Part shown: positions 3 to 4,349 of the stretch, piece by piece
Numbering within the stretch: the first letter of the stretch is position 1
Layout: each line of letters begins with the position of its first letter
NCBI GenBank assembly: GCA_963733055.1
Contig: CAVTBR010000003.1
Span: 416,001 to 480,000, forward strand
DNA length: 64,000 bases
Source: Candidatus Bathyarchaeota archaeon
GTDB taxonomy: Archaea > Thermoproteota > Bathyarchaeia > 40CM-2-53-6
Direction of reading: 5' to 3'
The notes under the pieces: generated by a model
What the model was told of the DNA's origin: nothing
The model's input: the letters and a program-made list of their open reading frames with translations, nothing else
Databases searched by the model: none
Position numbers and translations under genes: made by a program

Positions 3-251
3 CCCTTCTGCCACTCGATACCGATAACGACCGTCCGCACGAAGCATTCGTTCCAGGGAAATACTTTGCGAGTTGAATCCTACGTCAAAGGCTTGGCAAG
101 GACGGGGGTAGAGATGGAGGCGCTTATCGCTGCTTCAACCTACCTGCTCACTATATGGGACATGGTAAAGCAGTACGAGAAGGACTCGAAAGGGCAATAC
201 CCGGACACCATGATATCCAACCTACGGGTAACTAAGAAAATTAAGCGATGA
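3..251 (+). CDS. moaC: Cyclic pyranopterin monophosphate synthase MoaC, 5'-truncated by window edge
   Basis: Open frame from nt 3 reads PFCHSIP...ARTGVEMEAL...TIWDMVK, the MoaC signature motifs; overlaps the moaB start. Confidence 0.9.
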   Translation, partial: PFCHSIPITTVRTKHSFQGNTLRVESYVKGLARTGVEMEALIAASTYLLTIWDMVKQYEKDSKGQYPDTMISNLRVTKKIKR

Positions 252-787
252 GAATGAGCCAAACCTCAAAACTACACAAGAAATCATCGCCAGAGACAGC
301 CACCGTTTACGTTATCACCTGTAGCACGTCGAAATTCATGCAGCTGAAAGCGGACCAGAAACCCGACGACGAGTCCGGCGACATCATTGAACAACTCGCA
401 GCCAGCGCCGGCCACAAAATTGCAGGACGCCAACTAATTTCAGATTCGAAACCTATGATTCGAAAAGCTACAAAGGGTGCGCTTTCGAACCGAGACGTCG
501 ACGCAGTGATCATTACCGGAGGCACTGGCCTGTCGTCTACAGATGTTACGTTCGAGGCCATTTCTCCCCTGTTGGATCGGGAGATTCCAGGATTTGGTGA
601 GTTGTTCAGAAAGATAAGTTACGACGAGATAGGCTCCGCGGCCATGATGAGTCGGGCGTTCGCGGGCACAATAAAGTGGGCGGCCATATTCTGCTTACCC
701 GGATCACCGAATGCGGTGAGGACGGCTATGGAGAAACTGATTCTCCCCGAATTAGGCCACCTGGTTGGTTTAGCCCGAGGGCCCTAA
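248..787 (+). CDS. moaB: Molybdopterin adenylyltransferase MoaB/MogA family
   Basis: DESG, ITGGTG, DVTFEA, IPGFGELFR, CLPGSPNAV motifs. Confidence 0.9.
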   Translation: MRMSQTSKLHKKSSPETATVYVITCSTSKFMQLKADQKPDDESGDIIEQLAASAGHKIAGRQLISDSKPMIRKATKGALSNRDVDAVIITGGTGLSSTDVTFEAISPLLDREIPGFGELFRKISYDEIGSAAMMSRAFAGTIKWAAIFCLPGSPNAVRTAMEKLILPELGHLVGLARGP

Positions 788-2559
788 GTCTTCTTGCGAC
801 TCTTCGTTTTCTTCACTCCTTTGGTTGCTGCCTTTGGAGCCTTCGAGGCCGGGGCATTCTTGGCTACATACTTCTCGTAACCCTTTGGATCACCGACCGT
901 TTCCTCACATAGACAGTACTTCAAAGATGTGACCGTGTGGGTCGGGCAGCTTTCTACGAACTCGCACTTATCGCACACAACCTGCAGACCATCAACGAAG
1001 CATTCTTGGATGGCACCTGCTTCACCGCGAGCCGCAACTTCTTCAGATCGTGCAAACTTAACGGACCGAGACAGGATTCCAGCTAGCCTTTCCTCGATAG
1101 CGTCTAAATTGTCAAGGCGCCGAACTACGAAGCAGCCGCCGGTTCGATCGTAGCCGATTCCCGCCCTCATGAGTTGGATGAATTTGTCCTTACCCATGTA
1201 TGGCAGTTTGAAACCGGTTGGGTCAAGAAGTTCCTGGGGGCCGGTAACTGCGGGTTGAACCTTCGACTCGGAGACTAGGAAGTCGATGTCGCGTTCCTCT
1301 AGCTCCAGCTGAAGGGCGACTTCTCTGCCCTGAGCCTCGTTGATCCGAAAGAGTTCCACTACGAACGGAACTATTTCCAGCAGTGCCTTGCGTTTCGAGA
1401 GGTGGCATGCTCGGGCCAACCGACTGCAGAGATGGTCTAGCGCCCAAAGTCGATATTGAAATCGATCAACAACTTTTCTTGAAACTCGGGGTGCTACTTG
1501 TAACGCGTGAACAGCGTCCTCGTCAGGGTTCTGGAAACCGACCGAAGCCAACTCGTTTAAAGCGACAGGTAGAAGGCTCCATTCTGGTACTCGGTCGCGG
1601 CGTGGAAGGTTGAATGGAGGCGGCATCATACCTCGCGATCTGCCGGCGCCGACTTTCCCGTAGCCCATGTCTGCTCTGGAAAGGGCGTCGTACGCCTTGG
1701 CCAGCTTATCTGGCGACGTATAGATGTAGGGAAGGATGTCGTGGATTAGCAGGAGAAGCTCGTCACGGTAGAGGGGAATCTCAGTCTCGTTAAGGACACG
1801 CCGAGCCGCGCCTAGTCCTTTCCCAGCGAACATTCCGCGAACCGTATTCTTCTCATTAAGTTCCCTAGTTCGGGTCGAACGCAGAGTCGCGATGCCGCTT
1901 GTTGACATTGTCTGCGCATCGTTAATCGCCGACCGCATGTCCCCGTAACTCTCACCAGCCAGTTTCTTCACAACTTTCGGCTGCAGTGACCGCCCTTCCT
2001 CGGCGAGTATGTGGTTGAGTAATGAGACGAGGAGACGCGGTCTGATCTCGTACATGGGGAGGACGATGCATGCTTTCCTGAGGTCGTCGAATTTTTCGTT
2101 GTCAAGGTCGTTGGCGGTGAGTACGATTGGTAGAGGCGCGCCTTTGATCGCGGTTAGGACTGCTCCTAATCCGCCTCGATCCTCACGGCCAAAAACTCCA
2201 TCCACTTCATCCAGAAGTATTAGGTTCCCTCGGCTGCCGGTCGAGAAGACATCGAGGGTCATGGAGCTACTTGCAGGGGCCAGCACTTTCTTGATCGTCT
2301 TTTCGGTTCTAACGTCACTTGCATTCATTTCCACCACTCTGAAGCCATAGTCACTGGCCGCCACTCTTGCGAGAGTAGTTTTTCCTACGCCTGGCGGTCC
2401 AACCAGGAGGCAGGCTTTGCTTGGTTTCTTCTTCAGTGTCCACTGCTTTAACCAGACTTTGAATTTCTCAACAGAGTCCTCATTTCCGAGGAGCATGGAA
2501 GTGGTTTGAGGGCGGTATTTCTCCGTCCAAGCCACGTTCTGTTGTGCCTGAGCCTGCAC
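784..2559 (-). CDS. rfcL: Replication factor C large subunit with C-terminal Cys-rich extension
   Basis: WTEKYRP, GPPGVGKT, EMNASD, DEVDG, GDMRSAIND; directly downstream of rfcS. Confidence 0.92.
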   Translation of the reverse strand: MQAQAQQNVAWTEKYRPQTTSMLLGNEDSVEKFKVWLKQWTLKKKPSKACLLVGPPGVGKTTLARVAASDYGFRVVEMNASDVRTEKTIKKVLAPASSSMTLDVFSTGSRGNLILLDEVDGVFGREDRGGLGAVLTAIKGAPLPIVLTANDLDNEKFDDLRKACIVLPMYEIRPRLLVSLLNHILAEEGRSLQPKVVKKLAGESYGDMRSAINDAQTMSTSGIATLRSTRTRELNEKNTVRGMFAGKGLGAARRVLNETEIPLYRDELLLLIHDILPYIYTSPDKLAKAYDALSRADMGYGKVGAGRSRGMMPPPFNLPRRDRVPEWSLLPVALNELASVGFQNPDEDAVHALQVAPRVSRKVVDRFQYRLWALDHLCSRLARACHLSKRKALLEIVPFVVELFRINEAQGREVALQLELEERDIDFLVSESKVQPAVTGPQELLDPTGFKLPYMGKDKFIQLMRAGIGYDRTGGCFVVRRLDNLDAIEERLAGILSRSVKFARSEEVAARGEAGAIQECFVDGLQVVCDKCEFVESCPTHTVTSLKYCLCEETVGDPKGYEKYVAKNAPASKAPKAATKGVKKTKSRKKT

Positions 2560-2560
2560 G

Positions 2561-3541
2561 TTACTTTCTTCCGAGTTCTACGACTTGAGCAAGCATAGCG
2601 CTCAGTTGGATATCCTCGTTCGCTCCCTGCGTTAACCTGAAATCGCACTCCCCTAGAGCACGGACAATCTCCACTTGCTTTTCTCCCGTTACTTCGGGAA
2701 TCCGATTAATTTCTCGATTTGCCCCGCGAATAATCTCCCTCCCGCTCACACCAAACTTACCCATCAACTCATACATGATGTCCCTCGCTTTGATGAAATC
2801 GCCCTTAATCGCCAGGATTAGCATGTTGCGTAAGAGGCCGCTCTGTGCCTCCGGCTGAAACTTTTCCAAAGCCGCAAGATCTAATCGTCCGTCCTTCGAG
2901 CTGCTCGCAACGACTTGTAGATAGTTCACGGCCCGTCTAAGGTCTCCTTCTGAGAGCTCCAAAATTCTCCTTAGAACCTTCGGGTCCGCCTCTACTTTTT
3001 CAGACTTGCAGATTTTATCAAGGTAACTTGTGGCGTCAGTCTCCTCTAGTTGTCTGAACCTGAAGACGGAGCATCTGCTCTGGATGGGTTCGATTATTCC
3101 GCTTTGGTAGTTGCAGATTAATATGAAGCGGCACGTTCTGGACGCGGTCTCCATTATCCTCCTAAGAGCCGTCTGTGCGTCCTTGGTCATTTCGTCGGAT
3201 TCGTCAAGGATCACGAGCCCAAATTGGACGCCGGAAGCCGTAGTTTGGATGATCTGCGAGAAACCTTTGATGCGCTCCCGCACCACGCCGATACCGCGTT
3301 CATCGGACGCGTTCAGTTCCAATACAAGCCTCCTGAAGTTGTCCCCCATCAACTGCCGTGCGATGCACAGTGCGACACTGCTCTTTCCCGTTCCCGGAGG
3401 GCCAGCGAAGAGTAGGTGAGGCATTGTTGATGGTGATTTTAGAAGCGACCTTAATCCTTCGACCGTCTCCTTTTGATTCACTACGTCATCAAGTGTTCGC
3501 GGCCGATATTTCTCGATCCACATGAGCCCCGTTTCATTCAA
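2561..3541 (-). CDS. rfcS: Replication factor C small subunit
   Basis: WIEKYRP, GPPGTGKS, LELNASDERG, AQTALRR, PIQSRC (SRC motif); no intein. Confidence 0.96.
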   Translation of the reverse strand: MNETGLMWIEKYRPRTLDDVVNQKETVEGLRSLLKSPSTMPHLLFAGPPGTGKSSVALCIARQLMGDNFRRLVLELNASDERGIGVVRERIKGFSQIIQTTASGVQFGLVILDESDEMTKDAQTALRRIMETASRTCRFILICNYQSGIIEPIQSRCSVFRFRQLEETDATSYLDKICKSEKVEADPKVLRRILELSEGDLRRAVNYLQVVASSSKDGRLDLAALEKFQPEAQSGLLRNMLILAIKGDFIKARDIMYELMGKFGVSGREIIRGANREINRIPEVTGEKQVEIVRALGECDFRLTQGANEDIQLSAMLAQVVELGRK

Positions 3542-3785: not shown

Positions 3786-4349
3786 TTGGCAGAAGCGTTG
3801 ATGTCGGTAGAGGATATTGACTTCGATTTCGAAAATTCGCAAACCAGAATTGTACTAACCCGCGAAATACCGGAAATGTCACCAAAGCTAAGCAGAATTC
3901 TGTCGTCCAAAATGGGACAGGAAGTCGAGGTCCCGTATTGGACAGCCAGAGAACTTGTTCAATTAGGATACGCAAGGTTCCGCGAAGAAGACGTCCTCAA
4001 TTACAACACACTCTCCAAGATCCACTGGCGGGAAACAATCCCAGCGTCGAGACAGCTGCCGGCGCTTCAACCAAACTTCTACTGCCTACTCCGACGCCAC
4101 GTAACCGAACTGAAAGAAGTAAGCAAGCAGGACCAAGTCAAACTACGTGAACTAGAGAGAACGGAAAGCCTCGTCCGAGACATTGTCAACTGTAGAATCC
4201 GCAAGATAGTTTCACTCGCGGCATCCCCAACGCCCTCCGAAGAAGTCATACAAGGACTAACCTACGAAGAACGAATCCTATACCTGATTCTCAACAAGAC
4301 CGTCGTGGACTGGAAGACTAAACTTCTCGGGAGCGCGCTGAAATCGTGA
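3786..4349 (+). CDS. GINS complex subunit (Gins23/Psf2-like)
   Basis: EVPYWTARELV B-domain motif, RIRKIVSLA, LTYEER; stop overlaps the mcm start, matching the known archaeal gins23-mcm operon. Confidence 0.8.
   Translation: MAEALMSVEDIDFDFENSQTRIVLTREIPEMSPKLSRILSSKMGQEVEVPYWTARELVQLGYARFREEDVLNYNTLSKIHWRETIPASRQLPALQPNFYCLLRRHVTELKEVSKQDQVKLRELERTESLVRDIVNCRIRKIVSLAASPTPSEEVIQGLTYEERILYLILNKTVVDWKTKLLGSALKS

Follow-up and report, generated by a model that had tools for sequence, protein, structure and literature searches.

A conserved cysteine-knot module at the C-terminus of a clamp-loader large subunit in Bathyarchaeia

Results

The large-subunit gene at the window locus

Replication factor C (RFC), the clamp loader of archaea, is described as a two-gene machine assembled from one large and four small subunits. 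Here we investigate the gene of the large subunit, rfcL, in a 64,000-nucleotide stretch of the genome of a Candidatus Bathyarchaeota archaeon (GenBank assembly GCA_963733055.1, contig CAVTBR010000003.1, positions 416,001 to 480,000), which we refer to as the window. Its reading frame is open along the entire length and encodes a protein of 591 residues, in which the core already known from other large subunits is followed by a module that is not known to have been described as part of an RFC (Table 1).

The core corresponds to an ordinary archaeal RfcL of the NCBIfam NF003229/PRK04195 group, as judged by the score of the hidden Markov model (HMM) and the presence of a Walker A motif. The NF003229 model extends over residues 6–429 and barely passes, with 280.3 bits at a cut-off of 280, the Pfam family AAA is recognised at residues 50–152 and the sequence GPPGVGKT is located at residues 54–61. 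As expected for a member of this group, the gene is placed after rfcS, encoding the small subunit, which is located directly upstream with a single base separating its stop codon from the start of rfcL. A full-length AlphaFold (AF2) model predicted from an alignment of 84 homologues, with a mean per-residue confidence (pLDDT) of 74.4, superposes on eukaryotic Rfc1 from RFC-PCNA structures, the top match in a Foldseek search being the yeast protein in this complex (7tku_A, E 9e-16, 487 alignment columns). The difference from ordinary RfcL proteins is found behind the core, where the window protein adds about 150 residues folding into an alpha/beta domain and a Cys knot. In Pyrococcus and Sulfolobus, where RfcL has been characterised, the protein ends in a tail containing a PCNA-interacting peptide (PIP) box and is not known to carry a metal module.

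Behind the core, the protein continues with the sequence LLDPTGFKLPYMGKDKFIQLMRAGIGYDR. A sequence-only reading of the DNA had described it as a Cys-rich stretch of some 150 residues behind the RFC core with a Lys-rich tail, and the translated frame bears out this outline including the spacing of the cysteines, which is exactly C-x8-C-x2-C-x5-C-x10-C-x-C (nucleotides 907–1002). When modelled as a separate domain, the module reaches a mean pLDDT of 79.6, with the knot composed of short hairpins and helices. Of eight regions compared across 83 fused homologues, the one covering the alpha/beta domain (residues 445–503) is the best conserved, its mean identity of 76% being followed by 72% in the collar, 69% in the AAA+ module, 64% in the Cys knot, 50% in a block of the linker region (residues 433–444) and 37% in the tail, which points to strong purifying selection acting on the module. 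All six cysteines are invariant in an alignment of 84 fused sequences and in one of 94 that includes stand-alone forms, and their conservation, on which the proposal of a metal-binding domain had been made to depend, is thus confirmed. The pattern C-x8-C-x2-C-x5-C is present in each of the 109 homologues of at least 540 residues, counting the window protein and excluding 13 shorter entries. Y561 and Y564 of the C-terminal helix are likewise invariant in the 84 fused proteins. In the numbering of the isolated module (P0002), L10, P11, L21 and G25 are near-invariant in the alignments A2 and A3, in fused and stand-alone proteins alike, F18 is near-invariant in A3, and Y28 is invariant in A2 and near-invariant in A3. 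The alpha/beta domain of the window protein also carries the family signature F-[KR]-L-P ... G-x-x-Y, and in 89 sequences of the module eight columns show conserved Lys or Arg residues (76–97% K/R), six of which belong to this domain.

Table 1. Features of the rfcL locus in the window, with positions counted from the first nucleotide of the stretch.
Feature	Positions	Strand	Residues	Properties
rfcL, RFC large subunit with fused Cys-knot module	784..2559	-	1–591	591 codons and stop (784–786), GTG start
RFC large-subunit core	1270..2559	-	1–430	AAA+ module with Walker A, lid, collar, C-terminal helical region
Linker	1234..1269	-	431–442	site of the split-gene stop and start in relatives; pLDDT <50 at residues 438–440
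Module part 1	1051..1233	-	443–503	beta-alpha-beta-beta-alpha-beta domain (secondary structure of the model), motif GFKLPYxGKDKFxxLMRxGxxYDR
Variable insert	1006..1050	-	504–518	pLDDT <50; 30% mean identity; missing from most stand-alone homologues
Module part 2, Cys knot	898..1005	-	519–554	C520, C529, C532, C538, C549, C551
Conserved C-terminal helix	853..897	-	555–569	DPxGYEKYVAKN; model helices at residues 552–555 and 560–568
Basic low-complexity tail	787..852	-	570–591	pLDDT <50, disordered in the model; poorly conserved in sequence, always Lys/Arg-rich
rfcS, RFC small subunit	2561..3541	-	326 in total	Pfam Rep_fac_C, AAA, lid
MoaB-like gene	248..787	+		convergent with the 3' end of rfcL, 4-base overlap
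GINS-family gene	3786..4349	+		Pfam Sld5, E 1.5e-9; divergent from rfcS-rfcL

The fused reading frame in related organisms

A frame of this length could in principle result from a missed stop or a frameshift that merged two genes during assembly, and relatives do carry two genes at the equivalent locus. Such an artefact can nevertheless be dismissed with near certainty, since open fused frames recur in other genomes of the genus and metagenomic contigs cross the junction without indels. The module, which is present in a single copy in the window genome, is carried by 11 of the 13 genomes sampled from the genus, with no match in the other two, and open fused frames of 596–622 residues are found in ten genomes besides that of the window. 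In G182, a genome of this genus that is 76% complete, the fused gene appears in pieces (locus L003), possibly as a consequence of frameshifts or assembly errors. A search with residues 430–591 retrieved 149 fused metagenomic proteins at E <= 0.001 (out of 545 candidates), which among the matches listed are 54–89% identical over the extension and mostly 564–602 residues long with AAA domains, the rest being fragments; a further 108 metagenomic proteins with 540 residues or more share this open frame. At the level of DNA, where a soil metagenome run covered 14 of 30 bins, two of its short contigs from related strains span the junction between core and extension (nucleotides 1171–1334 and 1171–1269) with substitutions and no indel, the codon changes being mostly synonymous and none of them yielding a stop. 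A stop codon separating the two parts is found neither in the open frames of these ten genomes nor in the junction-spanning contigs, and the fused clade holds fixed substitutions of its own (D523 and T/S554).

A family of small proteins linked to rfcL

In a search of whole genomes with the 149-residue extension, 36 of 201 genomes of the class contained a match, which outside the window genus resides in small open reading frames (ORFs) of about 98–205 residues from stop to stop. The respective proteins of about 100–140 residues align end to end with residues 443–570 of the window protein, and by this alignment the extension corresponds to a small protein, of a family without a name and linked to RfcL, that has become fused to the large subunit. 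The module thus exists as a separate gene and, within one genus, as a fused part of the large subunit. The view that a metal module had been grafted onto the clamp loader holds in that the module is separable, conserved and located at the C-terminus of RfcL, but the graft is not new, since a pre-existing neighbouring gene became fused.

A profile search identified 752 stand-alone proteins at E <= 0.001 among 2022 candidates. Among the matches listed, all small proteins for which the source gives a name are called 'hypothetical protein' except for two JGI labels ('rubredoxin' and 'VapD'), and exact-sequence look-ups returned the same description for proteins of Nitrosopumilus sp., Candidatus Nitrosopelagicus brevis, Candidatus Nitrosocaldus cavascurensis and Bathyarchaeia. 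Within longer proteins, a search for other architectures, weak because of its word index, revealed none: it gave only two matches, both of which consist of small proteins of the Nitrosopumilaceae type and read-through junk. In these Nitrosopumilaceae proteins (L031:3986-4297 (-), L032–L034 and L036; P0263–P0295) a CxxC...HxxC finger takes the place of the alpha/beta half, leaving only the knot in common, and 19 of the 33 distinct sequences contain a K-K-F-x-[IL]-L-like motif at the C-terminus, which could be a partner-binding peptide.

The linkage of the small gene to rfcL is pronounced. In Bathyarchaeia, an RfcL-like ORF is located just upstream on the same strand at all 22 loci with a separate module gene, and at 17 of them the distance between the intact ORFs ranges from -4 to +17 nucleotides. 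Of the others, two show apparent overlaps of 58 and 175 nucleotides that stem from the longest-ORF rule and three contain a fragmented rfcL or module (L005, L028 and L030); a further locus that ends at a contig edge (L004) was excluded from the count. The arrangement is exemplified by a 422-residue rfcL followed by a module gene of 117 residues with an overlap of 4 nucleotides (L006), and by one of 429 residues that is separated by 13 nucleotides from a module gene of 120 residues (L007). In Nitrososphaeria, rfcL is found directly upstream at 11 of 16 loci (6 of 6 in a first set and 5 of 10 in further families).

Ligand positions in stand-alone and fused forms

The knot of the stand-alone proteins contains eight cysteines with a spacing of C-x2-C-x5-C-x2-C-x5-C-x~9-C-x-C-x2-C in 128 of 131 sequences, after removal of four fragments or frameshifted entries. 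By position, Cys 2 is present in 129 of 129 proteins and Cys 8 in 128, with a single replacement by His; from this count of ligand positions five fragments were left out and P0143 falls outside the pattern. In the fused clade (n=110), Cys 2 is changed to Asp in 109 proteins and to Glu in one, and Cys 8 to Thr in 99 and to Ser in 11. The window protein, with D523 and T554 at these positions, consequently lacks the full set of eight, and retains the six cysteines that are invariant in the family (1, 3, 4, 5, 6 and 7) at the x2 and x5 spacing. The residue behind Cys 7, which is mostly Pro in the stand-alone proteins, is Asp or Glu in all fused motifs listed (90 of 110). The joint change throughout the clade and the invariance of the remaining six cysteines suggest that metal sites have been retained with a changed set of ligands, probably by mixed coordination through Cys and carboxylate groups.

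Distribution and history

Of 151 Nitrososphaeria genomes sampled, 143 contain the module (142 of 150 without the unpublished genome G632, which contributed no sequence to this study, and 108 of 111 at high quality), distributed over 10 of 12 families, with no profile match in the families f77 (0 of 3) and f87 (0 of 1). Among the 201 genomes of Bathyarchaeia, sampled at a completeness of at least 85%, it is detected in 45, with a distribution that differs between families: it is present in 8 of 10 genomes of family f13, 18 of 32 of f16 and 3 of 10 of f31, and in none of the 46 genomes of f21 or the 10 of f19. The RfcL proteins of sister genera without module (nine loci, L054–L062) comprise 400–440 residues and are 28–40% identical to the core of the window protein. 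One of the module-less proteins (L060) originates from G200, a genome that is assigned to the window genus. The RfcS proteins of module-less relatives show a similarly long branch as their large subunits.

Phylogenetic trees were calculated from 42 hand-chosen RfcL cores, leaving out sequences that are fragmented or ambiguous in their start (L003, L005, L009, L023, L026 and L028). In the RfcL tree, Nitrososphaeria are set apart from Bathyarchaeia, the fused proteins constitute one clade (support 99/100), and the module-less members of the family form a single long-branched clade beside the module-linked RfcL proteins of f13 and f25 (support 93/96). The module is inherited together with RfcL, as reflected in the major clades shared by both trees, namely Nitrososphaeria, the fused genus and f16/f31; the f13 and f25 sequences form a weak group in the RfcL tree and no resolved group in that of the module. 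A second fused fragment, P0130, is colinear with residues 380–567 of the window protein (32% identity, E 5e-19), retains all eight cysteines and groups among the Nitrososphaeria modules with an SH-aLRT value of 97, which implies that fusion to RfcL has occurred at least twice. Fused forms occur in one genus of Bathyarchaeia, that of the window, and independently in one Nitrososphaeria-like fragment. The simplest reading of this pattern would be an old rfcL-module gene pair with one fusion in the window genus and loss in sister genera. The possibility that the genus acquired its fused rfcL by horizontal transfer was considered and set aside: the trees separate the fused clade from the module-less RfcL proteins of its own family, yet an approximately unbiased (AU) test retains a topology where both form one clade (p-AU 0.151).

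Search for related folds

No member of Pfam or NCBIfam was recognised in the window module, in sets of 13 and 94 homologues or in the Nitrosopumilaceae variant. A search of the PDB sequence set with the window protein left the extension without a match, and a profile of the module gave only aIF1, at an E of 0.27. An exhaustive comparison with the VIA aligner reached a best Z of 3.7 in a wide search and 3.5 in a second look, with none at Z >= 5. Its matches to the alpha/beta half are generic (KH, Cas2/VapD, SUI1 and the N-terminal domain of XPB) and the knot was barely probed by them, the only rows covering it being weak and originating from PHD fingers (6lqe_A with Z 2.8, a root mean square deviation of 3.3 A and 44 aligned positions over model residues 70–114, and 6lqf_A with Z 2.6). 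For the knot alone, the nearest neighbours in a protein language model are mostly small proteins of the zinc-ribbon type, at scores of up to 0.81 that are no better than chance. The Pfam family DUF5710 (PF18974) was suggested by a language-model score of 0.84 and a TM score of 0.41 and was not confirmed: P0002 has no HMM match at E <= 1, only one homologue reaches an E of 0.26, and the family HMM, with a gathering score of 26.5 bits, misses the module when run over the whole genome.

Discussion

The extension described in this study extends the clamp loader by an element that relatives usually encode as a small separate protein, and we consider it likely that this module is an accessory part of RFC. 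In the ancestral state, the module gene would have been separate, usually abutting or overlapping the end of rfcL as in Bathyarchaeia and most Nitrososphaeria, with its product presumably associating with RfcL. In the window genus, the stop between both genes was lost, and a linker of about 12 residues now tethers the module to the helical region at the C-terminus of RfcL. By binding two metal ions or clusters, the knot would maintain the shape of a small rigid surface; in the fused clade two of its eight ligand positions have changed together, with a new Asp or Glu right behind Cys 7. The module might then act as an adaptor, extending RFC by an arm for docking either to DNA at the site of loading or to a partner in the replisome. 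As target, we tentatively consider the DNA junction, for which the chances are somewhat short of even, and with greater reservation PCNA or another protein. A more far-reaching version, which we regard as doubtful, would make the Cys-knot protein a true third subunit of RFC in Nitrososphaeria and part of the Bathyarchaeia, where a redox-active Fe-S cluster or a two-zinc knot would couple loading to a specific DNA end or to the polymerase or primase.

Additions to clamp loaders are known from other systems, such as the N-terminal region of Rfc1 containing a BRCT domain, which binds a second DNA at the 5' junction, Ctf8-Dcc1 in Ctf18-RFC and chi-psi in bacteria. All of these illustrate the same concept, a non-ATPase subunit or domain that links the loader to DNA ends or partners, to which the archaeal module might be analogous; it shares no homology with them and differs by its position at the C-terminus of the large subunit and by its metal knot. 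If it were indeed a third subunit, archaea would possess in it a convergent counterpart to chi-psi in bacteria or to the accessory subunits in Ctf18-RFC.

Several observations weigh against a role in RFC. At five of the ten Nitrososphaeria loci in further families there is no rfcL within about 2 kb, so the linkage is frequent but not obligatory, and at four of these five the module gene is located behind ABC/ECF-transporter-like genes. In 156 of 201 Bathyarchaeia genomes no profile match was found, and in the other four genera of the window family the module is absent from all 27 genomes, 24 of which contain an RfcL match; since the RfcL of these sister genera works without it, the module is dispensable for RFC as such. 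No known fold that binds DNA or proteins was recognised, as Foldseek found no match in the PDB at E <= 0.001 and VIA none at Z >= 5. The folded part is not strongly basic: in 89 homologues the median isoelectric point of the module is 8.1, and that of the window module after removal of its tail is 5.2. These features could be reconciled with a small protein whose job is unrelated to RFC, for example a zinc-finger regulator, with adjacency and fusion resulting from tight packing of genes, as might be expected from the distance to rfcL at 5 of 16 Nitrososphaeria loci, the patchy presence in Bathyarchaeia and the lack of a recognised functional domain. We nevertheless find this improbable in light of two separate fusion events, both with RfcL as the partner and both at its C-terminal end, an adjacency that is maintained across two classes, the congruent clade structure of module and RfcL and a conservation of the fused module at least as high as that of the ATPase core. 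That no other architecture was found among longer proteins points in the same direction, although weakly, as the search gave only two matches, both read-through artefacts.

A different role concerns the contact to PCNA, which characterised archaeal RfcL proteins make by a PIP box at the C-terminus. The sequence-only reading had noted that no QxxLxxFF motif is found at the end of the window protein, which is correct as a scan for Qxx[LIMV]xx[FYWHL][FYWL] gave no match, and it had described the module as standing in place of a PIP tail. The latter contrast fails because module-less relatives also do not contain the canonical box, which is absent from the C-terminus of all 42 related RfcL proteins, including nine from genomes where the module was not found anywhere. 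A PIP-like pattern occurs in six of the 42, in each case inside the folded core, the copy in L033 being located 34 residues from the end in a conserved helix. That the module would itself supply the contact to PCNA could be argued from this general lack of a canonical box at the end of related proteins, from its location at the C-terminus, where the PIP box is found in characterised RfcL proteins, and from the K-K-F-x-[IL]-L-like ends of the Nitrosopumilaceae proteins. Still, the RfcL proteins of sister genera lack both module and PIP box, so the module is not needed as compensation, the Nitrosopumilaceae motif is not conserved in Bathyarchaeia and many proteins of the f16 type stop soon after the knot, all of which renders this possibility unlikely. 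Basic tails, in turn, seem to be common to RfcL proteins of this kind in general, since they are shared by module-less forms. Several of the 42 related proteins have basic tails of their own, and in one sister genus the module-less RfcL proteins L058, L059 and L062 contain a Lys/Arg-rich end (...KKRAK...RRKKK..) that resembles the tail of the window protein.

The arrangement of cysteines makes it very probable that the module binds metal, and the question of its identity leaves two candidates. The C-x2-C-x5-C spacing had been taken to indicate either a [4Fe-4S] cluster or zinc. The invariant triad C529-x2-C532-x5-C538 with a Cys upstream indeed matches the spacing in established [4Fe-4S] sites, but no Fe-S family in Pfam or NCBIfam and no similar solved structure was found. 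In endonuclease III and MutY, the HhH-GPD glycosylase domain ends in a C-x6-C-x2-C-x5-C motif that ligates such a cluster. The window protein shares with them the triad and a fourth Cys further upstream, at a distance of x8 instead of x6, and neither the full-length protein (P0001) nor P0002 or the 94 homologues contain an HhH-GPD or glycosylase domain. In Cas4, AddB and Dna2, the C...C-x2-C-x5-C pattern of the [4Fe-4S] site straddles a PD-(D/E)xK nuclease core; here again the triad is present and a nuclease domain is detected by neither Pfam nor NCBIfam. The ancestral form of the module differs from all of these motifs by its eight cysteines in CxxC pairs, an arrangement that is reminiscent of the cross-brace in PHD and RING fingers, with which the stand-alone protein shares eight ligand positions in four pairs and a weak structural match. 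In contrast to these C4HC3 and C3HC4 fingers, all ligands of the module are Cys with no His, its loops are far shorter and the Z scores remain far below the level of kinship. A further likeness in outline is offered by the C-terminal domain of eukaryotic family-B polymerases, where zinc at CysA and a [4Fe-4S] cluster at CysB serve contacts to subunits and PCNA and not catalysis. Both might be regarded as eight-Cys units with two metal sites at the C-terminus of a replication protein, whereas no relation in sequence or fold was found, the spacing of the cysteines differs, the module is preceded by an alpha/beta domain and it also occurs free-standing.

Taken together, the eight-Cys pattern, the single Cys-to-His replacement among 129 proteins and the weak PHD-like matches are no less compatible with two zinc sites than with Fe-S, and we slightly favour a knot with two structural zinc sites. 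At least one Fe-S cluster, which would be formed by the triad and a fourth Cys and would confer redox- or DNA-charge-dependence on the clamp loader, is a plausible if less than probable assignment. Besides the spacing, it would be in line with the Asp at the position of Cys 2 in 109 of 110 fused proteins, as Asp is known as an alternative ligand of [4Fe-4S], and with the presence of eight cysteines within about 35 residues, which could in principle hold two clusters; the three CxxC pairs and the exchange to His are more typical of zinc knuckles, and the PHD zinc fingers among fold matches and the zinc-ribbon-type neighbours, albeit mere leads, point away from it.

The module is not mentioned in those parts of the archaeal RFC and clamp-loader literature that our search covered, which include text of PMC3914693, PMC9258230 and PMC2880001. 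Although near-universal in sampled Nitrososphaeria, the small protein lacks a name, a structure and a model in Pfam or NCBIfam. Should it belong to the loader, current descriptions of replisome composition in the globally abundant ammonia oxidisers and in Bathyarchaeia would be incomplete. The split and fused proteins, together with the forms containing eight cysteines and those with six and a carboxylate, provide ready-made constructs for studying the function of the module and its metal.

Neighbouring genes

The surroundings of rfcL contain further conserved elements. In the window, the GINS-family gene and the rfcS-rfcL pair constitute a small replication gene cluster. In genomes of Nitrosopumilus and Nitrosocaldus, a conserved ORF of 375–378 residues is located directly upstream of rfcL (L031:5460-6587 (-) and L035:1615-2751 (+)), in L031 with an overlap of 4 nucleotides. 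It has no match in Pfam or NCBIfam and might represent one more component of the rfcL operon that lacks a name. At the other end, the MoaB-like gene of the window abuts the 3' end of the module, and a gene of this type is again located beside module genes away from rfcL in two genomes of Nitrososphaeria (L068:2351-2914 (-) and L074:1507-2031 (+)), a recurrence which suggests that the neighbourhood of MoaB and module has been kept across classes.

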